DNA of 63,825 bases, counting the filler, from Phoronis australis (taxonomy: Eukaryota; Animalia; Phoronida), in assembly GCA_002633005.1 (NCBI GenBank). It is 8 parts of 8 records of this genome, joined end to end, with 100 filler letters (N's around TTAATTAATTAA, not from the genome) between each part and the next. Parts side by side here need not be neighbours in the genome. Positions count along the whole stretch, not along the records: positions 16,121 to 40,470 come from NMRA01000061.1; 7 more parts are not named here. The stretch is one strand, 5' to 3'. Below are positions 5,457 to 60,050 of the stretch, piece by piece. The translations under genes were made by a program, and so were the position numbers. Positions within the stretch are counted from its first letter, which is position 1, and every line of letters starts with the position of its first letter. The notes under the pieces are model-generated. The model saw nothing but the letters and a program-made list of their open reading frames with translations. It had not been told where the DNA came from and did no database searches.

Positions 5457-8400
5457 TTAAAGCATCCAACTTTTTATCACTGTCATGCAAAGGTCCTAGT
5501 TCAGCCAGTACATCCATCTGTTTTATGGCCTGTAAAATTGGCACATTAAATTGTTACAGTGTTCTGGAGACAACATTCATAGCCACCAAAGAATGTTCAT
5601 ACAGAAAATATCAGAAAACCTCTGTCCCAAGTGCAGAAGTGGGAAACTTGTTTTGAGCCACAGCCAAAACTAAATTGTCACAAGAGGACATCATAGCAAT
5701 CGGAACCATTCAAAACTTATCGTAAGACAACTGCAAAAGATCATCAGATGTGCTTTTTCTAGTAAGAACCCATAATTATGTCCATTTTCATAATGATCCT
5801 TAGAGTGGTTTGTCAGACAGAGAGATAGACACCAAAAATCGACTCAAAATATAATCGAAAAATGGCCACTATGTGGCTACAATACGTCAAATCTAACCAA
5901 AAATGTCTACCCACAATGAGCAGTAGGTGCTTAATAAAAAATTGTCAAAAGCAGTGGTTGCTTAGACAAGCAGTGGGTGCTGAAAGTTCACTCAAATGTA
6001 GTATTGACTTAAGACACACCTGAAAGAAGCCATTGACAGTTCTTGTGTAATACTTGAGAGAGGACCGACTGGTAAAGTAACCAGTCCAGAAACTGTGAGC
6101 ACTCTCAGCATACGGGAAGAAGTCATCACCCTTGGTCGTCCAGTTGAGGGCTGCCTTGTTCTTGGCGTATGTGTAACACGATGGTGTAGAGTAGAACACA
6201 TTCACCTTACTTTTGGTCTTTTGCTGCAACAAACACGTAGTCATGGAGATCATCTGGGGATGCTGTAGTCAAGGTGATCATTACTAATNGGAGGGGGGGA
6301 AGGCACCTTTTTTCGCACCCACCACCCATATTTTTCATTTATTTCTTCAGCCTACCACCCATAATTTTTTATAAGTTTGAAATGCAACCACCCGTAATTT
6401 TTTTTTGTTCTTGTGGTTGACTGCACAGGCGCTTGAGTTTATCTGTTCCTCCATCACCACTAACGTCATTCATTACCAAGAAAACATATGTTTCTTATAT
6501 ATGGTTATTAGCCATCGAGAAATTCAAGCACCTGTGGTTAAATGGTGTTATGGGCATGCCGATGAGGAGATCGGAGGGAGTGAAAAAGTCGGAGCTCTTT
6601 GCAAGTTGCATTTTTGATTCAGTTTTTGATTCTGTGCAGATTGTTTATAAAATTTACTAAATTACCCACCATCAAACATTTATGGCCCAATGAAACAACA
6701 ACGACCTGTAAATTTAAATTTTTTTGAAGTACGACCACCAGCCATTTTGAATTTAAGTCAAACGCAACCACCCATAAATTTTTATTTCAGTTGCCTTCCC
6801 CCCCCCTCCCAAACAGATTTTGCTGGAACAGCCCTAAGATTATGAAAAGCAATACCTGACAGAATAACATTCCAAAGCCTTAGAATTGATCTAACGCAAG
6901 CTCCGCCCCCTTGCAAAAGATCGACAAAATACAATTTTACCTGGCAATATGTTGTTTGTCAGGTAAAATGGTGGCCTGGACACAAAGGTGTGTCAATAAT
7001 TCGACGTTATGATTGGACAGTTAAGCCATCACTCAAAATCTTTGCGATAGGTCAATTATTAAATGCTGTAAACATGTGATGCTATTATTTAGTTTTTATT
7101 TTTTTACTGTCTTAAATGCTGTTAACGTGTTATGCTAATTCTATTCTCTCTCGTCTTAAATGTCGTAAACATGTGATGCTACTATTTAGCTTACTAGTTG
7201 TTAGCTCATAAGGTAAAATATTCAGTTAAGCTATATGTAGAATATGATAGGGTCCTTGTGTTGACCTACATACTACAAGGTGTGGCCCTATAGACAACAA
7301 GGTGCGACATATGTGTAGACCTATAAGCAACAAGATGGGGAGGCGTGTGTTGACCTACAGCCAGGACTTAAGACCATAAAGAAACAAATTGAAGCTAAAA
7401 GACATCAAATGTTTACATGAGAGCCTCTAAATAATAGCATCACGTGGTTACATCACATAACGTAGGAGCACAGAGAAACCTTCCAAGTATGGATAATCTT
7501 TAAAAATAAAAGCCAGGGCAGACTTGAAAAATTCTCTCAAGACAAAACTGATAGCAAAAAAGAGATTTCTCAGAATTCATTCTGTTAGTGAATGTAGTGA
7601 GCACTGGTCCCACGCTTGTGGCCCAGACGTGATTCATACACCAGAACATGTTGCCTGATCACCAGTTCTGTTTCAGATTACACATCACAAAGGTTAGTAT
7701 TATTAGTAGATGTGGAATTGAAAGAATTGTACAGAATACCTTGGCATTCACATACTGGATCAACTTATCCAGGTTTTTAAAGTACATTGCGGCATCTTGG
7801 TAGTTGAAGTCATCACCCATGGTTAGCATAATATGGTTGCTTCTATACGCTCTAGCCTACAATTACCACAAGGATAATTATGTAACACATACCTTGGCAT
7901 TCACATACTGTATGAGTTTATCAAGGTTTTTATACCAGCTACTGGCATCTTGGTAGTTAAAGTCCATCCCCATGGTCATCATAATGTGGCCAGCATTGTA
8001 TGCCTTGGCCTACAACAAAAGCAAAACTGGATGATGAATAAAATGGGCAAGTAGGGATGTGAACTGACAATCAGCTCATTGCCTTGCGTGTGTGTGTGTG
8101 TGCATGTGAGTGTGTGTGTGCATGTGAGTGCGTGTGTGTGCATAAATGATGGAATGTTGAACAGAAAAAAATTAGGTGGGACAGAGATCCCTGTCAGTAA
8201 TGCCATTACCTGTTCAGTAGCTGTGTTGATAAATGCATTCACTTTCTCGTCCACATTGTAGTCGTTCAGTCTGTCGTCATCCTGTTGGCAAGAACAAACT
8301 CCAGTATTGATAGAAACATGTTAAGGATAAAGGCACACAGGAATGTGATACGTGATACGGAAGGTCAAAGAAAGAACATTTTGTTTAGTTTTTGGAACCT

Positions 8401-15975: not shown

Positions 15976-18282
15976 TTAAAGGCCTATGGTCCGAGTTATA
16001 GAAGAAAAAACCTCTTAACGNNNNNNNNNNNNNNNNNNNNNNNNNNNNNNNNNNNNNNNNNNNNTTAATTAATTAANNNNNNNNNNNNNNNNNNNNNNNN
16101 NNNNNNNNNNNNNNNNNNNNGCATATACTATCTGAAACTCGTCAGTCAAATTAAGTCACTAGCTTTCACTAAGCTTTTACATACATCAGCACTCAGATAA
16201 GGCTTCGCGCTTTTAGTTAAGTGAGGTTGAGTGTATTATGAACTTTGAAGATGAAAACTGAAATACCAACATCTTTAAATAAATTGGACAACAAACTTTC
16301 AACCAAAACACTTACTAAATATACTAAACTTTATTGAAAAAATTACAAGTGTTGCTACATTGTATTTTGCATTTACCTCAGTTTCTACAATATCAAATTA
16401 ATAACAACTCGTTAAATCACTCAAACACCCCAGCAGATTATACGGGCGAACATGAAGTCCGGAGTACTCCTGGACATCAGTGGCTTTCAACTTCATTATT
16501 TTCCTAATTTGACCATTTTCCAGCGCCCTTCAAGGCAGCCAAGCGTGAAAAGAAACCTTTATCCTGCTGTGGTGTCAGCCAGCCTTCCTCCCTGAGCTGT
16601 GAAGTTATTTCAGAGTCTGGTTTGTTGTTCCACTTTCTGAAAAATGACAGGTAGTTTGTAACACTCTCGAATTATACACTTTTTGCAGAGCTTCGCAGAG
16701 CCCAGCCGCTACACACTGTCATTGCCTCTGAGTGATCCAATGATTTTAGCTGAGATAATTCATTTGAACCATGGCGTGTAATATGTAAAACGACCCTAAG
16801 TACAACCAGAAAATAACACTGTGGGTATTTGATTAATTTTTGACATCAAGAGAATGTCATATCCAGATCCTAAATATCGACATAGTGGGTCTCCTAAAAC
16901 ATGACGACACACTATGATTGCAAGAATTACATGATTCACCGACAAACAAAGTGAAAATTCATTGTGGCATGCAGGTTGTCAGTTAAAATAGGAATTTATA
17001 TCGCTATGCCTACATTATTCATCAATATATGAATAGGAAAAATACTGCCAGTAACGAACTAAAAAGAAGACTCATAACAACAATAATCGTTGTTGAAAAG
17101 TGAAAGTCAATGAGATGTTGCATTTTCCTCTTGTAACACGTGGCCATAGATGCACATAATCTCGGACTTAACTTAAAACTAACACAAACGCTACTGGTAA
17201 GTGGACTGAATAGCTCTGGGCTAGCCTGCACTCTAACAACGGCGACAGGATAGGTATGTCATTTGACTTAGGAACTCAAAACTGCTCATCAGTTGTTTGC
17301 AATGATGCTGGCATAATACTTTTGAATTTCACAGGTGGGGTCAAAAAAGCTCTGTCTATACTGTCCGAAAACAAGTACTGTAGCTAAATTTTTATTATAC
17401 ATGCAAGGTCACTCAGTTTATGAATTTCCTGAAAGAGAATCAGTAACTTGCACTGCGGGGTACTGTATTAGACTAACAATTGTTTTTTCTTGGGGTGCTA
17501 ACTGGTTCTCGAATCAGGTATCCATAAAACTGACTATTACCCCCAAAATGCTACCGCGATCAATTCGTATTCAATCAAAGTAGGCCTAGTAGTTATACTC
17601 ACTAGATCCAACAGGAAAGAACACATGCATTGACATTGTTGAGTTCCAGTGGAAGTAAGTTGACGTTAGAAATTTCAGCAAGCATCCCCACTCCAAGCTT
17701 GGCACGCAAGTTACTGCTAATTAAATGGGTGTTTGTGCCTTCTACTTGGTTCCACAGAATTCCAAAACGAGCCCGGTGTCTTGCCCTTGCCTTAGACGCA
17801 GTCACACAGGCGTGTCACAGGTCCGGTGAACACGCATTTGTAAATTGCCCGACTCTCGCCAAAATCAGTTGCCGAATAGTCTGAAGGTGTAGTGGCTTGG
17901 TACTCACTTTATGCTGCACCAAGATTCCACACATGAGCAAAGGATATTGTTTTGAGGTCACACACACTTCATCATATTCCATCATAGCAGTTAATATTGC
18001 AAGTCATTGTAGTCAGCAATTGTGCCACCACTTAAGTGACACGCGGAATATTAATGGAAATTGAAAGAATACCTTAAAGAAATGCTCCTGACTTAATGAA
18101 ACTGAACTAAGCATTAATAAACCAACATTTGAATCAAAACTGCCCTCTACTGGTGTTGTAGTGTTCCAAACAGGTATCAGCATTGTAGGTAACTTTCACT
18201 CCGGTGGTTGTCAACATCTTGCGATTCCTGCAGCAAAATGCTCTGCGCCAGAAGATTTTATTGTACCAATCAACATCACTAA

Positions 18283-22850: not shown

Positions 22851-23006
22851 ATAGGTTTCATTTGTCTAATTAGGGGTTACCATATAATAAATTAATTACT
22901 GGATTTGATTATTCACTCTCCATCTACGCACAATCTAAAAGCTTAGCTACCTTTTAAACAAACCCACAGTCAAACATCTGACAGATATTAAGCAACAAGC
23001 ACTCAC

Positions 23007-23252
23007 TTGTCTTCGTTTCATTCTGATGTGAAACTTCGTCTGTATGATTCTTCTTCAAAGCTGTTACGACAACAATATACTTAGTTCCAGGAATCAAGCC
23101 AACACATGTGTAATTCCTTGCTGTACCGCTTGTATTGAAGTGATTGTCACCGCAAGAAACTCTGAAGCTGTCACAAGGTACAGATTTTTGCCAACGGACA
23201 TTTATTGTCGTTTCTGTCGTCTTTAACTCATAAATTGAAGGTCTGTCGGTGG
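23007..23252 (-). CDS. Fibronectin type III domain exon
   Basis: 246 nt, phase 1-1, tag/gtgagt, open frame: TTETTINVRWQKSVPCDSFRVSC...NYTCVGLIPGTKYIVVVTALK. Confidence 0.8.
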
Positions 23253-24879
23253 CTATAAATGTAGAAATACAGATAAAATTACAAACACTGATTTAGATAA
23301 CAAGACCAACCAGAGCCTCGATACGTGCTCAACGTGTGAATCCTATATGTCACTTAAGAGTAATTAGTTTAAACATTTCCAGAATGCAGAGAAGTGCAAT
23401 TAAACAAACTTGCCTAAAAGTGAATTCCACAAATATCGATCAACTAGTTTGGTAGATGCCTAAGCTGACATCAAGAAACAAAAATAAATTACTAGTGCCT
23501 TTTCTCTGGAGGACGCTGTCTAATCTCCAAAAACAATTTCACAAAAACCGCTCAACTCGTTTGGCGGAAAGACCTGGTAACCAAAAACTTGTTGCTGCAT
23601 TGCAAATTTCTTCGAACACCGTGGGGTCGTAGGCATAGGAGGGCACGTTCTAGCCAAAAAAATACAGCGTGAGGGTACACCATGGCAACTGACATACAGG
23701 TACGGGTTGGAGCGACCAACGAATGAAAGACACTAAAACTTGGAGAAGAGGGAAAATTCAGAGTATATGCCAACTGCCAGCTGCTAATTTGTCATTTCAG
23801 GGTCTTGACCAGGACATTATTTTTAGAGGAGCCACTCTTTCAGAAAAGGTTGTCTAAGCTCACTTTAAAACGTGGACCTTTAAGGGTAATGCATTCACGT
23901 ATTTCGAAACAAGCGAGGAAAACTATTTAAAGCATCATATTATCAGAAAATAATGATTCACTGGATTTTGAAAACAAAACTGATAATTCCAGACGTAGAA
24001 AATAAATCTGAAACTAAATAAGGCGATCCAGATCCTCTCAAGGATAATATTGTTCCACGAAATGTAGAATATATATTGGTATATAAAACAACAAGAATGG
24101 ATCTCCTGAAATTCTCGGATATAATAACATCCTTCGTCAACAGAAACAGAAATAAAGTAAAATCAAACACTATATAACAATTGACATTTAAGATGTGGCG
24201 TAACGAATGTGATACATTGTTGCACAAAAATCAATGATAGAATTTAAGAAATGTTTATGTTTAATCCATAAGGCTCTAGTATTGCTTGACTTCAACTTAT
24301 CTCATCTGCAAATTCAGTAGCATTTGTTGTAATCCAGACAAATATTTTTTCTACACCCTGCGAAAAAATCCCGGGTAATGAAAACGATTAACATTGTTTA
24401 GTTACCTCACTGACATAATTTTGATCAGTTGAAATAGCCGCTAAAACGAGTACGCAGCACGTTGGTTCCTTTTCCACGCACCCCTCTTAGGGCACAGTGG
24501 GCTCAAGTTATATCAACAGACTGAAATACTGTATAAAAGAGATATAAATGACGCAATCTATATATCCACGTACTCCCTTTGCAACATACTTAATAACAAT
24601 ATCTCATCAACCATAAAAACAACAAGAACAAGGACAAACCGTGGTTTAACAACAGAAGTAAGTCTGAAGTAGACAAAAGAAATGAGCTGTACGCATGGTT
24701 CAGATAATCTAGGAACCCTTTCACGTTTAAGTGTTACAAAGAGCAGTGCAAACGTGTGGGAGAACATATTAAAAAACAAAACAGGAGAAAATCTAATTAA
24801 GCTTACACGTTTAAGTGTTACAAAAAGCAGTGCAAACGTGCGGGATAACTTTTTAAAAAACAGAATAAGGCTATAACAT

Positions 24880-25631: not shown

Positions 25632-25659
25632 CATAGATTATAGACAACTATAGTCTATG
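25632..25659. mobile_element. 28-bp palindromic micro-element with 7-bp TSD
   Basis: gtctcag|catagattatagacaactatagtctatg|gtctcag; removing it with one TSD restores the transposase frame. Confidence 0.85.
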
Positions 25660-30859: not shown

Positions 30860-31100
30860 AGAGTCCCAGTGTTTTGGGATTAACTATATGCTGCTATTTG
30901 AAACCAAACGACAAAATCAGTCAGCACTGAAGCTTGAAATTGGCGATAACACGACCTGTAGCATTGTCAAAATGACTGCTGATGCCAACAGTTTTACTAT
31001 TGGAAAACTTTGGGTGCTGAAATTATTTTGTTTCGTTCTACTAGACGGTATAGTAGATGCAAAAATGTAGGAGTTGCGAATCTGTTGTTTACAATCTATG
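30860..31100 (-). mobile_element. Fragment of CATAGA-terminus transposon family; other fragments at ~31700-31980 and 34594-34980
   Basis: ggagttgcgaatctgttgtttacaatctatg is the reverse complement (2 mismatches) of catagattatagacaacagattcgcaactcc at 34594; internal sequence also shared. Confidence 0.65.
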
Positions 31101-32359
31101 AAGAGACCGATGGTTATGTAAAAAAATGGCGTTTACTAAACTTATATTGCTTTTAAAAACGGGTAAGGTGAGTTTTGCTTGACTCACAGATTTTGCAGGG
31201 ACCACGCCGGTCTTGTTTCTTAAGATTCACCACGACATGACAAGCATTTACCCTGAAACTGGAGATGAACACAATGTGGTGCCCTAATTATTTTGACGAT
31301 ACTCTCCATACAATTAGATTGCTGGCTACTTACTTTTCAGCTCGACCACCTGTGGCTTCGAAAACCAAAACAACATGAAGCTGATAATCATACATGAAAA
31401 TCTAGCTTCCATATTTTTAAGTGAAGTTGAAGTTGCGCGTGTGCGTTCACCATTTGACGCTCTTCGTGTGCACGGATATCAGTTCACAGTTGCAAAGTTG
31501 TAAAGCAACGTAGCACTATCTCGCATCACGTCGTCATTGTTGAACAATATGCCTATCGTCATGTAGCAATCAAACTTATCCAACGGATAACTTTAAAGTT
31601 TTATGCAATTGTGCCTTCGCAACTAATACATTTTCCTTTTGAATATCTCAGATTAGGCGCTATTCTATTCAACTGCGAATCTCACTTTCCAGATATTGTA
31701 TCGTGCATCTGTTTTGCTGTTAAGTACAACAAAACAAAACAATTTCGGCATTGAAAATCTGTTCAAAGTCTTTGAAGAGTAATTTTTTGGTGATCGTTAG
31801 TACTTTTGGCAATGCTAGATGTCGTGGTATTGCAAAATCAAACTTTATTCCTGATTGAATTTGTCGTCGGCTTGCATTTAGCAGAATACTTTACGATTAT
31901 TCCAAATAGTTTGGGGTTTTGGGTTCTTGTATTGAGAATATTACAGAATGGGTGTGAGCACAAATTTCAAAGAGTATCTGTAAAATATTGGTTTCATTAA
32001 TGCCCATGCACTTACGCTGCATTGTGTTGTTTGTCGCCACTTGTAATTACCCCCTCCCCTACCCCATTTTATCTGTTTTCCGGTAATATAAGACGGCTTT
32101 ACAAAAGATGTGGTTGTCTGTCTTTCTTATCGTTCACAATCCTACGACCCAGCACGGGCGACGAGGATGGGATTTCTTGTTTAAATCTTTCTAGTTCTTT
32201 TATTTTTGCCGTGGCTTGTCTCGTCGGACGTTTGGGATATTTGCTAATAAAACTGAACGTTTTTAGTTGTGGCATACTTGTTTCCAAAATTTTGTCAAGG
32301 CAAATGATGTGTCGGCTGATAGACAAAAAGCGACTTGACTTTCCTGGCAAATATTGATG

Positions 32360-32642: not shown

Positions 32643-34593
32643 CACATCACCATTTTTTGTCCGACCGGTCGGAAATTGGTCGACGACCGGCCGTCGACCG
32701 GTCGGCAAATTAGCAAACGGTCGGCTAAAAATTGGCCAACGGCATCCGCCGCAGTGTCGACTCATAAGGCGACCCACAGCTGGCCCTTCATCCGACCGGC
32801 CATCAGCCGACCAGCTGGTCGGCTGCTATTTTTAGGCGTCAAATAAATTAACTTAGTTTTACCGTCTCCGTTACATGAGTTCACATCGGCTGTATAACAC
32901 CACTAATTCGAAGGTTGAATATCATTGAATTATGGACAGTGCAACAAGTTTTGGATAAAAAACTTGAAAGTTTTTTCAACATTTGATCTTTAATTTGACT
33001 CCTGACGTTACCAAGCTGCATTAGATTGGTTGCTTCGAGGTCAATACAACGCTGTAGTCATTTTGTAAACGCAGCTATTTTTGACAGTCTTCACCCACGA
33101 TTGTTTTTTGTTTGTATTACGCCAAAGTGCATCTTTTTGCGTTATTAAAATTCTCCACGGGTCTCCTATCACGTGCCCATGATGATGGGATAGTGAGTGA
33201 GTTGTTACACCGAAGAGCTCTCACTCCGGGTTTTTTATTTTCATATGATTAACCCTTGCAGTACAGACGCGAACTAACTTCGAAATCATATGGTTACTAT
33301 TTTCACGAACTTAGACAGTGACATCAAACACGGAATAAACACTCCTGAGGCAACAACCAATTCTAGCTTTGCGCATTCCGTTTTTACTGCATCGGTGACG
33401 ATAAACTCTGCGCTAGTTACATGTATCAGTTCTTCGCTCACGTTGTTCCAAAAATAAATAGTTTCTGTCAACAAAATATTGACAAATTATATAACATAAA
33501 ACAATTTTGAACGGGAAGATGTGACTTCGTGGTGAAGAGGTATTTGTCTCTACACGGCATATTTGCGTGAATCTTTGGTAAAGCGATGTAGAAAAATGAT
33601 AGAAAATAAACCACGGTGCAGAATAATTCTTCTGTGTTCAGCTGTAAGAAGACTTACAACAATCTTAAAAAATCCCAGCATGAGAGCGATTCATCAGAAA
33701 TGTCAAGCACATACAGCGTAGTGAGACAGACACGTTGGCGTTTCCGTATGTCCACAAAAGTGCTTTGAGCAGTGTGTACAAATCTGTTAACTTCGCTTTT
33801 CTACACTGACGAATATGGCCAACACGGTGTTTTAAAAAAGTCCACTTTTGAGGCCATTTTCAACAATTAATATGTTTGGTTTAAGCATTCAGAGAGTCGG
33901 TGCACACGTCGTACATTAAATGTACTCGTGGGAAAAAAAGTATCCGCGTAAAGAAAGAGTTGCGTTTTCAAAACTCAGAGACGTGTGTTGTCAGGACCCT
34001 ACATTAATAAACCGAGGCCAAGTACAAAGCACGTCTTCAAAATTTAGATAAACAAAGTTTACGGCATACTGATTACAGGGTCACTGACTCGGAGCACGTT
34101 CTTAGGCACATGTATATTGTAATATCGATTGAATTATGAGTTATAACTGTGAATAGCACGTACGCGTACAATAAGCCATTCACATTTATATCTGATCACA
34201 ATTCACCCCCTGCTTTGAAAACAAAGAACCGTTTAGATAATTTTCGGAAAGAACGTGAACTAAAATGATAGGACAAACACTACATGCCATAGTCGAGATT
34301 CTACATTCGAAGACCGTTTTTGTGAGAAAGAAACTTTCAATAGGAGAAGTTTGTAATGACACCTAAATAAATATTCCTTAGAGTAGACGCGAAACGCTTA
34401 GTACATGTATTGTGTTCTTACTCCAAAGGGCTCGGCCTTGGTGGAAGATGTTTACTAAATTAAATACACAACTTTGCGCCGTTATGGGTAAGAACTGGCC
34501 GAATAAAACCTTCCTTGAGTAATCTAAATCATTTAACGACGTTCCAAAAACTACTTCACTACAGTTATCCTGCTGCTAAAACTGTGGTGTGAT

Positions 34594-34980
34594 CATAGAT
34601 TATAGACAACAGATTCGCAACTCCGGCATATCCTTACGTGCTGAGTTGAACTCTCCTGTCCTATCTGCTGCAGTTTCCGGTCAGTGTATTTTGACGAGAA
34701 ATACTTGCATCTACTTTACTGTCCAAAACAACGAAAAAAATATTAATTAATATTAATTTCGGCATTGAAACGCTTTTCAAAGTCTTTCAATAGTAGAAGT
34801 GTGGGTATTATGAGTACTTTTGGTTATGCTACTGGTAATTAATTACAAAATTCAAACTTCGGTGCCGACTGATTATGTCGTCTGCTTGCCCAATAGCAGC
34901 ATAGTTATCGGACAGTTTTTGATTTACGGTTCACATAGGCCTACTGAGAAAACTACAAAAGCGTGTTTATAAATCAACAT
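34594..34980 (+). mobile_element. Left end of CATAGA-terminus transposon family
   Basis: Begins catagattatagacaac, identical to the first 17 nt of the 28-bp micro-element. Confidence 0.65.
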
Positions 34981-34994
34981 TCTCAAGTGACCAG

Positions 34995-35040
34995 TTCTTC
35001 TGGAAAGTGTTGAGTGGCCCTTAAAAGGGCTGTTGGTTGT
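34995..35040 (-). terminator. Histone-type 3' stem-loop and putative histone downstream element
   Basis: Minus strand ACAACCAAC-AGCCCT-TTTA-AGGGCC-ACTCA (hairpin 35016-35031, basal pair mismatched), then CCAGAAGAAC. Confidence 0.7.
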
Positions 35041-35083
35041 AGGTATAGCGTGAAATGATTCTTAAAAAAAAACGTTGAATAAT

Positions 35084-35401
35084 TTAACATAAATCACACA
35101 GTATACCATGCTCACTCATGTACTGAAGATCCTCTTCATTCAAGTTTTCATCTGGGAAGGTTGGATGAAAACAGAGGAGATGACAATATCTATGACAGTT
35201 GTAACACCTTAGATAGATATTACCGTTCACCGACGTTGTCACGAACCCTGCATCGTTCAGTTCTTGTTCCTGTATCCACAAATAATCCTGAACTGTAGGA
35301 AAAAAATGACAAACAACACAACGAATCAAATTTCGAAAATCATCGCCTTCGTACGATTTCGTGTTGCTGTCACCAGACTGATGTTCTTCTCCAACATCCA
35401 T
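35084..35401 (-). CDS. Intronless 105-aa PHD-finger-only protein
   Basis: ATG at 35401; CVVC...CYNC-x4-H-x2-C...CDLC* gives complete C4HC3 spacing; acidic loops; open frame. Confidence 0.75.
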   Translation of the reverse strand: MDVGEEHQSGDSNTKSYEGDDFRNLIRCVVCHFFPTVQDYLWIQEQELNDAGFVTTSVNGNIYLRCYNCHRYCHLLCFHPTFPDENLNEEDLQYMSEHGILCDLC

Positions 35402-36216
35402 CGTGCGAAAAGGCCACGCTTCTTTTCCCAACTACACCCGGAAGAGCTGGGTTCTGTGCGCGCGCAGGGAGGTCAAGTAGGTGACCTCTACATTAACCTA
35501 TTTTATTACCGGATGCTCTATGTGACCTCTTTCTGGTTTCCGGCATTGCTGAGACAGAAACTCAACTGCGATTTCAAGCGATTATTTAGCGAAAATCTAC
35601 CTGCTTTACTACTTCTGCTGCAAAATCACTCGACTGTGCTCATTGTTAACGTGTTCAGGATTCCTGTTGTGTAGTTGTAATTACCTTGTTGTGCATAATC
35701 TTTCACTTTGAGCGTCATTTTTGGATCGTTTGTTTTAATAGTGTTAAAGGGCTAGAATAATTGTTTTGTTACCTTGGTAACTACTTATAAGTTATTTTTC
35801 CTTAGTATTCCTGGGTATTAGTTGATTCTAATATAAGTTTTAGATTTTCAGACATCAGGTCAGCTTTGAACNGATCGTTTGTTTTAATAGTGTTAAAGGG
35901 CTAGAATAATTGTTTTGTTACCTTGGTAACTACTTATAAGTTATTTTTCGTTAGTATTCCTGGGTATTAGTTGATTCTAATATAAGTTTTAGATTTTCAG
36001 ACATCAGGTCACCTTTGAACAATCAGGGAAGAATGAGGGTGAGTTCTTGGAACATTATTTTCTTAAATGATATCTTGTGTAGGCCTAGCTGTTACTACAT
36101 GCCCATTCATTTGTCCTAGGATAGAGTTTTGTAACGTCACTAGTCATTTCCTTGCGGCCATGTCAACATGACTTTATCCTTATACTCTTCCAGATATTTT
36201 TGTTATTTGGTTTCAG

Positions 36217-37593
36217 AGACGACGGACTTCACCCATCGAGGGAGGGTAACCGGGTCCTTCATGAACACTTAAACTCTACTCTGGCTGCAACGTTGGATAA
36301 CCGATACTTCATTTGGACGAAAGATGACTTTCCCACACTTTCAGATGAGCAGTGCGTATTCTTATTTGTACTCAGTCAAAGTTTCGAAATTTCCAAAAAA
36401 ATGCAAATAGTGTAACGTAGTATTGTATGTGTTCAGTACCTTTTATGATTTTGCCGCATTTTCTTCTAGTACCGAGCCCTTATGCCAGACAGGTGTTGCT
36501 TATCGAGATGCACTGCTGAGACTGCCAACAATAAGTCCAGTTGAAGTACAAGTTGAAGTAGAGGTTGATCGTGTGGAAGTTGGAAAAAGTGAAGATCAAA
36601 GTAATTCNTACAAGTACATTGAGAGCAGCCGCAACATCAGCATCGACTTGCAAGTACACAGTGGAAGATGTGTTAGTTTTTGCTTTGACTGAAATGACTG
36701 AAGAAAGCTATGACCCCTATTGCCCACTAGTGCCAATTGTTGAAAGGTCAAAGGGAACTTTTTGTGGACGAAAAATGAAGAGATCCACCAAAAGAAACAA
36801 TTTTCATGAAGTCGTACAATCGGGGATAAAAAGTTTGGGACAACATGCTCTGGCTTCCAAACAATCAAAACATAAGAGTTGTGCTAATGACAACCATCCT
36901 TTTGTTGTGCCAGAGATAAGTCCACTTGAAGTACAAGTTGAAGTAGAGGTTGATCGTGTAGAAGTTGGAAAAAGTGAAGATCAAAGTAATTCTATCACTA
37001 GTACTAGAACTAAAGTTCCGACTAAAGTTCTTCCTGAGTTACAGGGGTGCACAACATGCATTTTAGAAGGTGTTAAAAAGCCTTTCAAGTTTACCAATGA
37101 TAAAGCACTGGACAAGCACATACAATTGAAACATAGGAGTAGGTTTTGCGTGTATTGTCATGAAAATGGAAGAAGAGCAAATTTTAACAATTTAAAGGAA
37201 TTTCGTACACACCTAAAAGAACATTCTATTGCTAAGAACACCTTTGCAGTGAAGGACGCATGCATAACAAAAATTAAAAAACTTCCTCACAAACAACTTC
37301 AGAAGCTTGCTGACTAGAAGCATTCTGGGTTAGCAAATATAGCGCAGCATAAACTGGAGACAAATTTAAAGTCCAAGCGAAGGCAAAAGCCAATAACAAA
37401 ACTTGCACATTTTTTCTGTCCTATTTGTCAGTTGGAGTGTGCTGATCCAGATACTGATGACAGCGCTGAGCCATCTATACAGTGTGACAAGTGTTTCCAC
37501 TGGTACCATTTTAAATGCTGTAATGTAATAGTTGCACCTCCAAACAACCAGGAATGGTTTTGCTTTAGTTGCGATCCTATGCATTCGGATTAA
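36217..37593 (+). pseudogene. SGNH-motif / 2xC2H2 zinc finger / PHD finger gene with one in-frame TAG
   Basis: Exon 36217-36351 (DDGLHPSREGNRVL...DDFPTL). Exon from 36470 has a duplicated VEVQVEVEVDRVEVGKSEDQSN block, CTTC..H..H and CVYC..H..H, TAG at 37315, then in-frame CPIC...IQCDKCFHWYHFKC...WFCFSC and TAA at 37593. Frame across the N at 36608 is uncertain. Confidence 0.7.
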
Positions 37594-39284
37594 GTAATCA
37601 GTCTCAAAACATTACCAAATGTTTATCACATATTAACTAATTATCTAATGAGCCACCAAATCAACAAACAGTATATGAGCCATCAAATCAAAAAAAAATT
37701 AAATCCTTACGTTCATGTTTGTTCAACCTCTGTAAGCTCTGAAGTATCTTTTGAGTATGTTCATACAATTCCCACTCATTGTTGTGCAGCTGAGAAACTT
37801 TCAATCAATTGATATCATTCTGTTTTCTTCTAATTTCTGGTTTTTGTTTTTGGGATGCTGAATCCACGATGGCTTTGATATAAAACTGGAATGATACTGA
37901 CAATGTAGTCACTTGTGAAAACAAGGTAAATGGTGGTTTAAAGCTCTTGAAATGGAAATGGGAGTCCTGTCATAGTAAGCAATATTGCGAGACTGATTTT
38001 TGGGTGGAATTGTATCTATTAATTTTGGCAACTAATTGTTTAGGAAATGAAGTTATAAGATTAGAGTTTTTTTTTCTGAGAGTCATTGTGTCTAATCCAT
38101 TGTATTGATACTAGATAGAGTAATTTCAGTTATGTTTCAGTTGTCTACTGCAACATGTACGTTTTCTGATTTTGTTCCTTGTGCACATAGTGGGTTAGAA
38201 TTTTGTTGAAAGCTGTAAATCCTGAGTGTCATTCACACACAATTAAACATTTTGAAATTGACATACAAGTGTAGTGATAGCAGTTCTTTGCTATGTTCAT
38301 GGCTGAGAAGATAACTTTCTGATTGTTGGAATACCTGCAATGTCTTAAGTGCGGATATTCCTGAATGGATACAGGTGGAAAGAAGGTCTTTTTCACAAAT
38401 TTGACTCTTTCGGCATATACTGTATAAATTCCTGTCCACTTTATTATATATTTTAAAATGTATTATGAATATTTGATGAATTGAACAGAGTTGGTTTCAA
38501 AACTTACTTTCAAAAATGTACCAGTTATGTTTAGCATGTCTACTTGGAGCCACTTTAATGATTTTTCCTTTTCCAGGTTGGACCCCACCACGCCTAACTC
38601 CGCCAAGCTGCATCATACTGTATGTACAATCATGTGTTGCATCTTGCCAGTCCCAAGCCTGGAGAAAGGAGGAGGGGGCGTTTTTATGACTTACCCAACA
38701 AATGGTTTCAGTTTGCACAGCCGTATATAGGGGCACCCCTGTGGGTACTACAAACAAACTGTTGGTATGTTATTAATGTCTTAACAGACCTGTCATAAGT
38801 TGTGGTTGACCCCTTCTCACGACATCCACATTCTGCAGTTCACGAGCTCTAACAAGCATAGGTGTATGTACTTGTACAAGTGGGTGCATGCTAGGGTTGA
38901 TGAGTGAATGAGTGTGCTATTGGCTACTGACCCTTCAATTATTGGTGACCATAGTTATTTGTAATCACCCATATATGTTTATATATATAGATCTATATTT
39001 GTATGCACAGATGTGTTATAAATTAATAAATATACAGTTCTCAATGAATGTTTGAAACTGGAATGTCAAGAGTGTTTATTTATCTTGGAAGAACTTGGAC
39101 AGGGCAATTAAGCTGTTGAGTACATTATGTGGTAAGACAAAAAATGCTAAGCAATTCAGCTTGATTGCAACATATAGGGCCATCCCAGGTTACTTCAGTT
39201 TCAGCAAGAACTTTCCCATGTTATTTTTTCTTGTATGATTATTTAAAAGGTTTTCTCAGATGCATTACTTAATTTGTCCTTCCA

Positions 39285-39450
39285 ATGCCAGCAAATAATT
39301 ACTGCTGTGCTGTGGGCTGCAACTTGGACGCGAAAAAATTGATAAACTGGACAAACATTCGAAGATGCGTGATCTGAAATTCTTCACCTTCCTGATATAA
39401 TTGAGAAACACAAATATGTGCTTATTTCCAAAATTATGACGCCCGCTTTG
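39285..39450 (+). pseudogene. THAP-domain remnant
   Basis: MPANNYCCAVGC...LDKHSKMRDLKFFTF with a frameshift; related to 41250-41486. Confidence 0.55.
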
Positions 39451-40278
39451 ATATCTCAGACATAAAATTTTAAGAGGGGGCTCTAAATCTGCCACTGAAA
39501 TTCTCATTTGAAAAATGGCCACAATGATTGTTCTGGCTCTGATATCGTTGGTAAAAGCAAAAAAACTTACTGTGTAACGCTCTTTAGTCTGCTGTGCTTG
39601 AGATGAGATGTTTTCACCTGCGTTCACTGTTGAATTCGGTAATTAAATGGTAAAAATCGGTAACCGGTCGTCGATTGGCCGTGCACAACCCTCAATTTTT
39701 AAATTATGTGGGTATATATTATTCTGAAAGGGTAGCCAGATATTAGTGCAGAAAATAAAGTCTTGCGTCGTGTGTATATGTTAACAAAAATTAATCTAGC
39801 AATGCACCCGAGTTGTAAAACGATCTAATCGATGAACATGAAACGAACAGCTGAACTAGCAGAAGTAAACAAAGGTCACGTGGGTAGAGGTCACCTACAC
39901 TGACAAGAGTAAAGGTCACCTACTTGACCTCCCTGCACGCGCACAGACCCTAGCTCTTCCGGGTGTAGTGGGGAAAAGAAGCGTGGCCTTTTCGCGTTCA
40001 TCGTAAAAAATCGACGTTGCAAGTGAAGGAAACTTGTCTACGCTCTCGTCCTTTGTTTCTAACCTTTAACCCATTTTTAATAAAGGGGTGTACTGTTTTT
40101 GTCACATGTTGATAGTGCATAATCTATGGTTCTACAATGTATTAATCGTGTTAAATGCATATATATGAACTGGTCTCATTGAGGTGCACAGCAAATAAAT
40201 TAACTATAACAAATTAAAGTTTTGAAAATATAAAGAGCAGTAACAGACTCCCTAAAAATCAGGCTTGTTTTCGAAAGG

Positions 40279-40326
40279 TTTGCGCCATTGGTGATCCGAT
40301 TGGTTCAATCGCTTGCGGCGGGAAAA
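40279..40326 (-). promoter_or_regulatory. Cluster of E2F-like and CCAAT motifs
   Basis: TTTTCCCGCC (40317-40326, minus strand), ATTGG at 40287 and 40299, tttgcgcc; motif match only. Confidence 0.3.
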
Positions 40327-40964
40327 TGATAGACCCAGTTATTGTGCGCGTGTACACTGTATCAATGCTTTGTATCTTATTCTTATTTGTCTAATCTGTT
40401 GATACAGTAAATTTCCTTATTTATGCCCATCCTGATTTAACCCCGACTTGAGCTCCTTGGGTTCTACCATNNNNNNNNNNNNNNNNNNNNNNNNNNNNNN
40501 NNNNNNNNNNNNNNTTAATTAATTAANNNNNNNNNNNNNNNNNNNNNNNNNNNNNNNNNNNNNNNNNNNNGGGGTTACAATCCCTTAAAGTTCAAAGTCT
40601 GAGTCAGAGTCGAATCTTAGATTAGGCCCAACATGGCCCTGGAATACCTGAATGAGGATTTTGCATTTAGAGTGTTGTAAGCCATATCAAATAATAAAAC
40701 TTCTTGGGCAAATCAAACAACTTTAGTGTTACTGTACTGAAGTCCAGTAAAAAGCAATGGAAAGATGCCCAGGTACAAAAACAACCAAAAACGTTCTGCA
40801 GGACAATTTTCTATTTTTATATTTAAATGAAACACCATGGGAATTTGGATAGAAGAAAAATGGAATTTTACCGTGGTAACACATCTCTTAACTGAGGGTA
40901 CTACTCCCGGCCCCTAGATGTCACTTTGCAACAGTCACAGTACCATACTGTTTACTAGAATTAC

Positions 40965-55226: not shown

Positions 55227-58200
55227 TGGAGGCAAGTGGCGGCCAGTGGAGGCCAGGGGAGGCCATTGGAGGCCATGGGAAGCCAGTGGAGGCCAGTGGA
55301 GGTAAGTGGAGGCCTGTGGAGGCCAATGGAGACCACAGGAAGCCAGTGGAGGCCAGTGGAAGCCAGTGGATTCCAGTGGAAGCCAGAAGAGACCAGAGAA
55401 GGCAGGTGGAGGACAGGGGAGACCAGTGGAGGCCAGTGGAGGGCAGTGGAGGCCATTGGAGGCCATTGGAGGACATTGGATGCCATTGGAGGCCATTGGA
55501 AGCCAGTGGAGGCCAGCGGAGGCCAGCGGAGGCCAGCGGAGGCCAGCGGAATAGAGCGAAGGCCAGTGGAGGCCACCCACTGGAAACCGCTGGAGGCCGC
55601 TGGAGGCGACTGGGGGTCACAGGAACCCTTTGGAGGCCACTGGAGGCCACTGGAAGCCACGAGTGGCCACGGGAGGCCACGATAAGCCACAGGAGGCCAG
55701 GGGAATCCAGTGGAGGACACAGGAGGCCACTCAAAGCCAATGTGGACAACTGGTGGCCACTGGATGCCACTGGTGGCTATTGGAGTCCACAGGAGGACAC
55801 TGGAGGCCACTGGAGGCCAATAGAGTCCACTGGAGGCCACTGAATTTAACTGGAGGCCACTGAAGGCCACAGAAGGACTCTGGACGCCACTGAAAGCCAC
55901 TGAATGCCACTGGAATACGCTGGAGTACACTGGAGGCCACGAGATGCAACTGGAGGCCACGGGAGGACACCGGAGGCCAAGGGAGGCCACTGGAGGCCAC
56001 GGGAAGCTGCTCAAAGCCACTGGAGTTCAGCTAAGGCTGTTGGAGTCCGCTGGAGGCCTTTGGAGTCCGCTGGAGGCCGCTGGAAGTCATTGTGGGACAC
56101 GGGTGGCCGCGGGAAGCCGTTGCAGGCCACTGGAGGCCAGGGGGGGCCACTGGATTTAACTGGAGGCCACTGAAGGCCACAGAAGGACTCTGGACGCCAC
56201 TGAAAGCCACTGGAGGCCACTGAATGCCACTGGAATACGCTGGAGTACACTGGAGGCCACGAGATGCAACTGGAGGCCACGGGAGGACACCGGAGGCCAA
56301 GGGAAGCCACTGGAGGCCACGGGAAGCTGCTCAAAGCCACTGGAGTTCAGCTAAGGCCGTTGGAGTCCGCTGGAGGCCTTTGGAGTCCGCTGGAGGCCGC
56401 TGGAAGCCATTGTGGGACACGGGTGGCCGCGGGAAGCCGCTGCAGGCCACTGGAGGCCAGGGGGGGGCCACTGGAGGCCACTGGAGGCCAAGAGAGACAA
56501 CTCAAAGCCGCTGCAGGCCGCTGAAGGCCATTGGAGGACACGGGTGGCCGTCGGAGGTCACTAGAGGCCAATGGAGGCCACTGGAGGAGACACTGGATGC
56601 CTCAGGAAGCCACTGGAATCCACTGAAGGTCAGTGAAAGCGACTGGAGGCCAGGAGAGGCCACTGCTGGCCACGGGAAGCCAGCGGAGGCCACCCAATTC
56701 TACTAAAAGCCACTGGACACAACTGGAGGCCACTGAAGGCCACTGGAGGCCACTGGAGTCCAAAGGAAGGCATTGGAGGCCAAAGGAAGCCACTGGAGGC
56801 CACGGAAGGCCAGTGAAGGACACGGCAGGCCACTCAAAGCCACTGTGGACAACTGGAGGCCACTTGACGCCACTGGTGGCCACGAGAAGCCACTGGAGGC
56901 CACGGAAAGTCAGTGGAGGATACGGGAGGCCACTCAAAGCCACTGTGGACAACTGCAGGCCACTGGTGGCCACTGAAGGCCACTGGAGGCCACTGAAGGC
57001 CACTGGAGGGCACGAGAGCCCACTGGAGGCCAAGGGATGACACTAGAGGCCACCTGAGGCCTCTCAAAGCCACTGGACACCACTGGAGACCACTGGAGGC
57101 CACTGGTGTCCACTGGAGTCAACTCGAGGACACTGGGAACCACTGGAGGCCAATGGAGGTCACTGAAGGCAACCGGAGCCCACTGGAGGCCACTGGATGC
57201 CACGGGAGGAGGCCACTGGAGTAAACGGGAGGATACTCAAAGCCACTGTGGAAAACTGTAGGCCACTGATACCCACTGGTGGCCACTGGAGTCCACTGGA
57301 GGACACTGGAGGGCACAGGAGGCCACTGGAAGCCACTGGGCAATTGGAGGCCACTGGACGTTACTGGCGGCCACGTTAGGCCACTAGAGGAAAATGGAGG
57401 TCACTGGAGGCCACTGGAGGACATTGGAAGGAACTGGAGGCCACTGGAGACCACTAGAGAAAACGGGAGGATAATCAAAGCCACTGTGGAAAACTGGAGG
57501 ACACTGGAGGGCACTGGAGGCCAATGGAAGCCACTCGAGGCCACAGAAGACCATTGGAGGCCACTGGACGCCACTGGAGGCCGCTGGAGGGCACTGGAGA
57601 CCACTGGAGGACACTAGAGGACACGGGAGGCCACTGGAGGCCACTGTATGCCCCTGGAGGCCACTTTAGGCAACTGGAGCCCAATGGCGGCCACTGGAGG
57701 CCACTGGAGAATACGAGAGGCCACTCTAGGCCAAGGCAGGCATCTCAAAGCCACTGGATGTAACTGGAGGCAACTGAAGGCCACTGTAGGCCTCTGGGCG
57801 CCACTGGAGGGCACTGGAGGTCACGGGATGCAAGTGGAGGCCACGGGAGGAACTGGAGGCCAAGCGAGGCCACTGGAGGCACGGGAGGCCGATGAAAGCC
57901 ACTGGAGGTCAGTGAAGGCCGTTGGAGTCCGCTGGAGGCCCCTGGACGCCGATGGAAGCCATTGGAGGACAATGATGGCCGTGAGAGGCCATTGCAGGCA
58001 AATGGAGGCCACGGAGGGCCATTGGAGGCCAAGAGAGGAAACTCAAAGCCACTGGATACCACTGAGGGCCACTAGAGTCCACTGGAGACCACTGGAGGTA
58101 ACTGGAGGCCACTGAAGGTCACTGGTGGCCTCTGGATGCCACTGAAAGCCACTGGAGGCCACTGATGGCCACTGGAATACACTGGAGGCCACTGGAGGCC

Positions 58201-60050
58201 ACTTGATGCCATTGGAGACCACGGGAGGACACTGGAAGCCATGCAAGGCCACTGGAACACACTGGAGGCCACTTGATGCAATTGGAGACCACGGGAGGAC
58301 ACTGGAAGCCACGCAAGGCCACGGGAGGCCACTCAAAGCCACTGGGGACCCCTGGAGGTCACTAGAGGCCACTGGAGGCCACCGGAGGCCACTGGAGGCT
58401 AATGGAGGCAAGTGGAGGCCACTGGAGGCTAATGGAGGCAAGTGGAGGCCACTGGAGGCCATAAGAGGCCTTTGGAGGCCAGTAGACGCCACTGGAGGCC
58501 ATTGGATATCATTGAAGGACACTGGAGGCCGCTGGATGCCGCTGGATGCCGCTTGAGGCCACTGGAGGCCCCTGGACGCTACTGGAGGCCACTGGATTTA
58601 ACTGGAGGCCAGTGAAGGCCACTGGAGACCTCTGGGCGCCACTGAAAGCCACTGGAGGCCACTGGAAGCCACTGGAGGTTTGTGAAGGCCGTTGGAGTCC
58701 GCTGGATGCCGTTGGAGGCCACTGGAAGCCATTAGAGGACACTGTAGGCCAATAGAGGCCACTGGAGGCCACAGGAGGCCACTGGAGGCCACTGGAGGAA
58801 ACTGGAGACCACGGATAGCCACTCAAATCCACTGGAGACCACTTTAGGCCACCGGGATTCACTGGAGGACACTGGATTCTCTTGGAGGCCAATGCAGGCC
58901 ACTGGAGGCCACTAAAGGCAATAAAGGTCACTCGAAGCCATCTGAGGCCACTGTAGGCCTTTGGATATCAGTGAAGGCTGCTCGAGGCCGCTGGTGGCCA
59001 CTGATTATCCGTGAAGGCCGCTGGTGGCCGCTGGAGGCCACCAGAGGCCCCTATATGACACTGGAATGCGCTGGAGGCCACTGACGGCCACTGAATTCCA
59101 TTGGAGGCTTTTGGAGGCTGATGGAGGCCACTGGAGGCAACTGGAGGCCATCGGATGCCAACGGAGGCCACTGGAGGCTACTGGAAGCCACCGGAGGTCA
59201 CTGGAGGCCGCTGGAGGCCACGAGAGGCTATTGGAGGCCACGAGTTATTACTGGATGACACTGGAGTCCACTGGAGGCCACTGGATGTCACTGGACGACG
59301 CTGGAGGACACTGGAGGCCTCTAGAGGCCATGGGAGACCACCTGAGGCCACGGGATGACACTGGAAGCCACGGAAGGTCACTGGAGGTCACTGGAGGCCG
59401 CTGGAGGCCACAGGAGGCCACTGGAGCCCACAGGAGGCCACTGGAGGACAGACACTGAAGGCCACTGGAAGCCATTGGAGGCCACTGCAGGCCACCGGAG
59501 GTCAACGGAGACCACTGGAGCCCACCAGAGGCCACTGGAGGCTACTGGAAGTCAGTGAAGGCCGCTGGAGGACAAAGGTGGCCGCGGGAGGCCACGGGAG
59601 GACACTGGAGGCCAAGGGAGGGCGCTGAAAGCCACTGGAGCCCACAGAAGGCCGCTGGAGGACAGACACTGAAGGCCACTGGAAGCCATTGGAGGCCACT
59701 GCAGGCCACCGGAGGCCAAGGGAGACCACTGCAAGACAAAGGTGGCCGCGGGATGCCACGGGAGGCCACTGAAGACCACGGGAGGTCACTGGAGGCTACT
59801 GGACTCCACTGGAAGCCACTGGAGGCCACTGCAGGTCAGTGAAACCCGCTGGTGGCCGCTGAACTGCACTGGAGGTCAATGGAGGCCACTTGAGGCCACT
59901 GGAGGATACTGGAGGCCACTGGAGGATACTGGAGGCCACCGGAGGCCACTAGATGTCAGTGAAGGCCGCTAGAGGCCACTGGAGGCCACTGGTGGCCAAT
60001 GGATTCCTCTGGAGGCCATTAGAGGTCAGTGAAGGCCACTGGAGGTGGCA
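55227..60050. repeat. 4.8-kb satellite, 10-bp unit TGGAGGCCAC with higher-order structure
   Basis: Roughly 480 diverged decamers; a 310-320-bp block is duplicated at ~55850-56470. Confidence 0.97.

Follow-up and report, generated by a model that had tools for sequence, protein, structure and literature searches.

A histone-type stem-loop behind the stop codon of a probably mobile PHD-like gene in Phoronis australis

We identified a short PHD-like gene in Phoronis australis (assembly GCA_002633005.1) that is followed by a histone-type stem-loop and that probably belongs to a repeated, mobile element. Gene and hairpin lie in the part taken from record NMRA01000061.1, which contributes positions 16,121 to 40,470 of the stretch of joined genome parts analysed here (the window; 63,825 nucleotides, filler included). 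Our favoured reading, held tentatively and with somewhat less than even confidence, is that the accessory gene of a transposon acquired a histone 3′ end and uses it. The initial annotation, which had described a PHD-finger gene borrowing the histone mRNA pathway, was as a whole partly supported.

The open reading frame occupies 35084–35401 on the minus strand and encodes 105 amino acids in a single exon, and the hairpin follows at 35031–35016, 52 nt past the stop codon. A stem-loop with AC-rich flanks had been noted about 50 nt after the stop, with a purine-rich stretch about 12 nt further on, and both proved to be where they had been placed: the flanks read as originally quoted, and the purine stretch starts at 35003, 12 nt behind the stem. 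Together with its AC-rich flanks, the stem-loop forms a 26-nt unit (35011–35036, minus strand) that lies 47 nt from the stop codon. This spacing is histone-like, the distance from stop codon to 26-nt unit in histone genes being given as 25–60 nt in the accessible part of bioRxiv 10.64898/2026.10.14.759114. The same part of that preprint names two stem and loop positions as diagnostic for SLBP binding, and the corresponding bases, a G-C pair at stem position 2 together with a U at loop position 3, are present even in the window copy. By the histone rule, the cleavage site is predicted to fall after 35011, 5 nt behind the stem.

In the window, the hairpin (35016–35031) has an A-C basal pair, which the initial annotation had entered as a reservation. 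To assess this base we used three raw RNA runs from one study (X7, X8 and X9), about one-fifth of each being read, and one run of contigs (X5), all under the same species label as the best-matching DNA runs (85% likeness). The minus strand carries G at 35031 in 93 of 107 RNA reads (45/50 in X7, 44/49 in X8 and 4/8 in X9) and in the sole X5 contig, all from individuals other than the window's, for which allele and paralogue are not separable; the position is absent from the 40 of 321 DNA differences listed. The A-C pair is thus the minority form. With G at 35031 a sixth base pair closes at the base of the stem, so that the reservation falls and the description of the hairpin as histone-type stands. 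Moreover, the majority 16-mer, GGCCCTTTTAAGGGCC, agrees at 16 of 16 bases with one of the human histone stem-loops in the list given in the methods of PMC7807067, as far as that source was accessible.

Scoring with the Rfam Histone3 model, a check that the initial annotation had proposed, gave a divided result for the A-C copy: the match was significant (E 1.3e-5 in 501 bases), but its 27.2 bits fell short of the gathering score of 34, and a scan at the gathering threshold left the hairpin without a match. It was nevertheless the sole Histone3 hit in positions 1–55000, with an E value of 0.0015 when all families scanned are counted. In the form found in the window, the hairpin closes just 5 pairs on folding (−7.7 kcal/mol, z −2.9, equalled by 4 of 200 shuffles), and z ranged from −1.9 to −2.9 across the hairpin tests. 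The candidate histone downstream element lies at 34994–35003 (minus strand), its core being GAAGA at 35000–34996, 15 nt behind the stem. According to the accessible part of PMC5054213, the histone-binding region of U7 has a universal UCUUU box, with which GAAGA could pair by using one G-U pair; a 5-mer is weak evidence when taken alone. Neither AATAAA nor ATTAAA occurs between the hairpin and the end of the element at 34594.

We then considered the encoded protein. All eight C4HC3 ligands are present (C28/C31/C66/C69/H74/C77/C102/C105), which bears out one half of its description as essentially one C4HC3 PHD finger. The other half needs correcting, in that the PHD finger is not a typical one: 34 residues separate the second and third cysteines, an atypical distance, and the match to the Pfam PHD family reaches 13.1 bits, under the cut-off of 24. 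The reading frame itself is intact and intronless, as had been claimed, but its setting is not, because an insertion sits over the ATG. No Pfam match was obtained in 44 stop-to-stop frames (of 57 listed) near the gene, and a sequence search of the PDB with the protein returned one PHD finger at E 0.29. Predicted models had a pLDDT of 69 for the window protein and 84 for the homologue P0012. The window model found its best Foldseek match in MLL3 PHD6 (E 0.028), and in a wide structure search with the P0012 model PHD fingers filled the top 13 rows, the best match having Z 4.7 and rmsd 3.0 over 64 aligned positions. A search of the Atlas gave nothing above 0.91 for the protein; the PHD clusters at 0.82–0.88 are leads only. 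Judged by these predicted models, we describe the protein as a PHD-like finger whose first loop is long and whose fold matches are weak.

Relatives of the protein numbered 2 and then 7 in the first search and 23 in a profile search. They make up a family without a name, about 95–110 aa in size, with most members at 106–111 aa. Two named members are hypothetical proteins of Dreissena polymorpha, and it is in this bivalve that the nearest named homologue is found. A common start point, an acidic SGxSDTES-like stretch and all eight ligands are found in most members, and each ligand is kept in most of the 23 aligned rows, the exceptions being broken or partial sequences. The shared start and the kept ligands make it likely that translation truly begins at this ATG and that the protein stands alone. 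Consistent with this, though as weak evidence, no fused longer form was scored among 4815 candidates. At E values up to 0.1, Pfam matched PF22908 in 17 of the 23 members and PF00628 in 14, and the matches of the window protein and of 22 aligned homologues included no histone family. Aromatic residues are conserved at positions 63 and 72, where we take them to have functional roles, possibly in a methyl-lysine cage.

Within the family, a tree placed the window protein on a long branch together with P0001 and P0002; the link from there to P0006 and P0022 is weak and affected by long branches, and we draw no origin from it. Both P0001 and P0002 are broken copies of the reading frame, and a loose read end at 35320 points the same way. 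Three homologues (P0006, P0022 and P0023) end at most 2 residues past the last cysteine, like the window protein; a tail of 7–9 residues follows that cysteine in most intact members. Read differences listed in the reading frame number 11, of which 5 are silent, 1 turns the stop into another stop and 5 change a residue; the rows listed are 40 of 234 and 40 of 321 (the latter from DNA), and this split is a hint of constraint only. Pieces of the reading frame were also present in a run that carries the label of a different organism, the closest piece differing at 4 of 113 bases. Two viral-contig loci were rejected as homologues because they matched off frame over 15 residues (one, L001, sits in a phage tape-measure-like ORF). 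A second search of viral contigs returned nothing, and the hairpin pattern had no instance there either. A single 14-residue match in a bacterium, from genome contigs, was likewise discarded.

The suggestion that the gene is probably carried by a mobile element gained support from its many copies, their dispersed and unlike flanks, and deletion derivatives. Contigs covering 33400–35420 numbered 1206, 257, 1534 and 22 in four DNA runs, which represent three samples at most and whose summed contig depth is not a copy number; in the same runs, 17, 6, 29 and 1 contigs carried a variant at position 35119 of the reading frame. Many unlike flanks precede 34592–34594, where the element starts with CATAGATTATAG, part of them belonging to a high-copy element of smaller size, which has no more than the first 30–45 bases of the terminus in common. 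The CATAGA-type terminus and its subterminal arm extend over 34594–34903 (plus strand), and related arm fragments are found at 30887–31100 and 31704–31888. Deletion derivatives were recognized by joints at 34635–35372, which ties the terminus to the start of the reading frame, at 34871–35253, and at 35010–35133, which marks a derivative without the hairpin. Taken together, these sequences show that the PHD unit is multi-copy, and it is probably mobile.

For this copy, we did not find in the window a second terminus flanked by the corresponding target duplication; the far end may lie in the gap at 40471. Position 40128 was rejected as the far end: 10 bases of the terminus match there, but the flanks are only 3/7 alike and a 643-nt contig from DNA run X2 continues, extending about 420 nt beyond 35404. 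We found no transposase remnant of the element in the window, nor an autonomous partner. A 28-bp palindromic mini-element at 25632–25659 consists of two CATAGA-type ends and is bordered by a perfect 7-bp target duplication; it has inserted into the remnant of a Harbinger-type transposase (DDE_Tnp_4, E 0.0045). The stretch adjoining the element, 33400–34590, is a separate high-copy repeat without a Pfam match in the scanned frames. Several assembly gaps hold a 12-base stop linker between runs of N.

The copy in the window is interrupted by a secondary 4.6-kb insertion at 35405–39995. Its 87-bp terminal inverted repeats (35405–35491 and 39909–39995) are 94% identical, and it is enclosed by a 9-bp target duplication (35396–35404 and 39996–40004, 7/9 alike) that contains the ATG. 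At 35404, reads and contigs depart from the window sequence and go on with that at 40005 (25 X8 reads and, from X1 and X4, a single contig each), so an uninterrupted site exists; the first 30 letters beyond this joint are shown, and the extent further upstream is drawn from colinearity. In uninterrupted copies the native upstream region corresponds to 40005–40470 (minus strand), which meets the assembly gap at 40471. It holds an E2F-like site at 40325–40318, CCAAT at 40303 and 40291 and a TATA-like motif at 40165, for which 0.04, 0.86 and 0.5 occurrences, respectively, are expected by chance per 466 bp. The E2F site, which was searched for after being noticed, is the only one of these motifs that is rare in the window. 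The copy in the window is likely in decay, its basal pair being broken and its promoter moved 4.6 kb away.

The insertion has features of its own. No transposase was found in 35405–39995, and from its inverted repeats and 9-bp duplication we take it to be Mutator-like. Beyond one stop, the frame of a plus-strand zinc-finger ORF at 36562–37317 continues into a PHD finger of canonical type (32.2 bits in Pfam), whose kinship with the 105-aa protein is not detectable (E 0.2). RNA reads over the left part of the insertion come nearly all from one direction. A Type-P1 twister ribozyme match at 38591–38680 (plus strand) reaches 58.1 bits (gathering 67.2; E 1.5e-10) with all model pairs. Duplications at 35724–36024 and 36523–36992 surround single Ns (35872 and 36608) and are probably assembly artefacts. 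Elsewhere in the window, a GC-rich unit of 10 bp is repeated in tandem about 480 times across 55227–60045, where both strands hold long open frames, and exon-like frames were seen by eye at 5945–8320 and 22954–23292, both on the minus strand. The former presumably resembles lysosomal alpha-mannosidase and the latter a fibronectin type III domain. Gene pieces split by introns, the Harbinger remnant and a nearest named homologue in Dreissena all fit an animal source for the window.

To look beyond this genome, we scanned metagenomes and obtained four loci (L003 to L006), of which L006 was dropped before counting as a chance match (29 residues, 41%, bacterial-looking context). The others all contain stops or frameshifts, and L004 and L005 are close copies from one assembly. 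In all three, a long ORF opens 2 nt past the PHD stop. That of L005 matches DUF7869 only (27.7 bits, cut-off 26), and from a reading of its motifs we take it to resemble a DDE transposase. In Dreissena, gene model P0020 has the PHD fused to a piece of this transposase-like ORF (60% over 40 aa). The expectation that homologues keep the hairpin was not borne out, since none of these three loci had an Rfam Histone3 match at E up to 1; with homologues about 35–40% identical, this is not decisive. The hairpin is therefore not family-wide, and the sequences suggest that it was likely acquired in the lineage of this genome. By eye, a reverse-transcriptase-like fragment at 1500–2115 of L003 seems to interrupt the 5′ part of its PHD homologue.

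Next, we compared RNA depth on the two sides of the hairpin, in reads that do not distinguish copies of the element. Mean depth over the reading frame versus the three bins behind the hairpin was 73.5 versus 66.1 in X7, 44.5 versus 63.8 in X8 and 12.3 versus 7.5 in X9. For first mates on the plus strand, the values were 45.5 versus 30.8 (X7) and 31.3 versus 44.5 (X8), and in X9, at low depth, they went from 4.9 to 0.7. Two of the three runs thus show no fall in depth behind the hairpin. No pile-up of read ends at 35011 is listed in the RNA runs, and reads cross the site. Both read directions occur over the PHD unit, and relative to 34500–34591 the RNA depth over the unit falls, roughly, about as the DNA depth does. 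Such a pattern is to be expected when a repeat is transcribed passively. The claim that transcripts end at the hairpin is contradicted by reads continuing past 35011, but not decisively: a stem-loop-ended mRNA is still compatible with the read-through because library selection is unrecorded, about one-fifth of the runs was read and histone genes are also read through. In the accessible part of PMC7807067, histone genes themselves yield read-through RNA, and nothing but such RNA would appear in a library selected for poly(A).

We weighed four explanations of these observations. That the hairpin merely resembles a histone signal by chance could draw on its score below the Histone3 gathering threshold, on the modest folding z and on a loose 3-mismatch pattern that is expected 3.9 times by chance; yet the E value over 55 kb and all families, and above all the 16-base identity of the majority form with a listed histone stem-loop, largely refute this, and we rate it as highly improbable. 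Alternatively, a domesticated host gene of the PHD family with a histone-style 3′ end could have been amplified by duplication, the terminus at 34594 belonging to a neighbouring miniature element. This would account for the missing second terminus with its target duplication, for the flank 33400–34590 being likewise repeated and for the promoter-like motifs upstream. It is at odds with the many unlike flanks before 34594, the internal-deletion derivatives that join terminus to reading frame and the transposase neighbours of the relatives, which leave it unlikely.

A less easily dismissed explanation is that a real histone 3′ end was captured by accident, amplified and left unused, the RNA stemming from copies in the introns or UTRs of other genes. 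Since the element was recently amplified, a captured sequence can persist without selection. The flat depth over the hairpin in two of three RNA runs, the two read directions and the rough agreement of RNA with DNA depth are what it predicts, and copies without the hairpin, broken copies of the reading frame and the three distant loci without a hairpin fit as well. It leaves unexplained why the signal is correctly oriented and spaced behind the stop of an intact reading frame, with stem, loop, flanks and downstream purine stretch all present. The first-mate depth in X9 also falls behind the hairpin, if at low depth, and a poly(A)-selected library would give only read-through even for a true stem-loop gene, according to the part of PMC7807067 that was accessible. 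We regard capture without use as a serious possibility, short of probable but only a little less likely than the favoured reading.

In our favoured reading, that the histone 3′ end is used, the PHD-like gene would descend from an accessory gene whose place in related elements is immediately upstream of a DDE-type transposase with DUF7869. The transposase would have been lost, and the histone 3′ end would then have taken its place. The hairpin would be recognized by SLBP and the downstream element by U7, the transcript would be cut near 35011, and intact copies would yield a short non-polyadenylated message, expressed in S phase or oocytes. The 105-aa protein would serve as a chromatin-binding adaptor, and the copy described here would be one of a repeated, probably non-autonomous DNA transposon. 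We infer every step of this scenario beyond the anatomy. The fuller version, in which a transposon-derived chromatin-reader microprotein is produced from many copies through SLBP and U7, with an E2F/CCAAT promoter and a histone 3′ end that would tie the mobile element's gene to the programme of S phase and oocytes, strikes us as rather doubtful.

In the accessible parts of PMC4604434 and PMC5054213, the mRNAs of histones are the sole known ones to be processed via the stem-loop and U7, and for HeLa cells the former reports no true targets of SLBP outside the histones. We found no literature report of a non-histone or transposon gene with a histone stem-loop among titles and the beginnings of abstracts, subscription papers and bioRxiv supplements being outside our view. 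If true, a non-histone client of SLBP and U7 would break the histone-only rule as these sources, in the parts accessible, state it. A mobile carrier, if true, would explain how non-histone clients originate and spread, and a transposon could match the timing of a chromatin-binding protein to that of replication or oogenesis. The PHD mRNA would then escape poly(A)-based transcriptomes. Copies with and without the hairpin, one of them with a broken basal pair, constitute a natural series in which selection on the signal, if there is any, could be seen.

Compared with known PHD fingers (PF00628, PF22908; MLL1 PHD3, MLL3/4 PHD6, Pygo, AL3), the family has the C4HC3 pattern in common, and such fingers occupy the top fold matches of its models. 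Unlike them, the window protein stands alone at ~105 aa, has a 34-residue helix-plus-hairpin first loop and scores below the Pfam cut-off. It also lacks a tryptophan ahead of the last CxxC and an aromatic residue directly preceding the first cysteine, two residues that presumably have roles of their own in PHD fingers. With regard to DDE-type transposons of the DUF7869 type (PF25273), a PHD homologue lies directly upstream in L003, L004, L005 and P0020, whereas the window element has no transposase and its hairpin stands where the transposase of the relatives begins. We take the motifs of the DUF7869-type ORFs to recall the Sola superfamily. Target duplications of Sola1 measure 4 bp in the accessible part of PMC3845634, in contrast to the 7-bp duplication that the window's CATAGA terminus type gives. 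From this difference, the carrier may belong to another superfamily. We assume that a P-like one is possible. The accessible parts of PMC4455052 and PMC3845634 do not settle the superfamily.

A precedent for one gene with both stem-loop-ended and read-through RNA is the dual 3′ processing of H2A.X, as described in the accessible part of PMC7807067, although H2A.X is a histone and the window gene has no AATAAA or ATTAAA between its hairpin and 34594. From replication-dependent histone genes, the gene differs in that its reading frame codes for no histone and that reads run through the hairpin. Its 3′ end is nonetheless built like the metazoan histone 3′ end (RF00032), with a stem of 6 bp in most reads (5 pairs in the window copy) and a 4-nt loop, a G-C pair second in the stem, a U third in the loop, flanks rich in A and C and a purine stretch with GAAGA 15 nt behind the stem, placed 47 nt from the stop codon of a short intronless gene.
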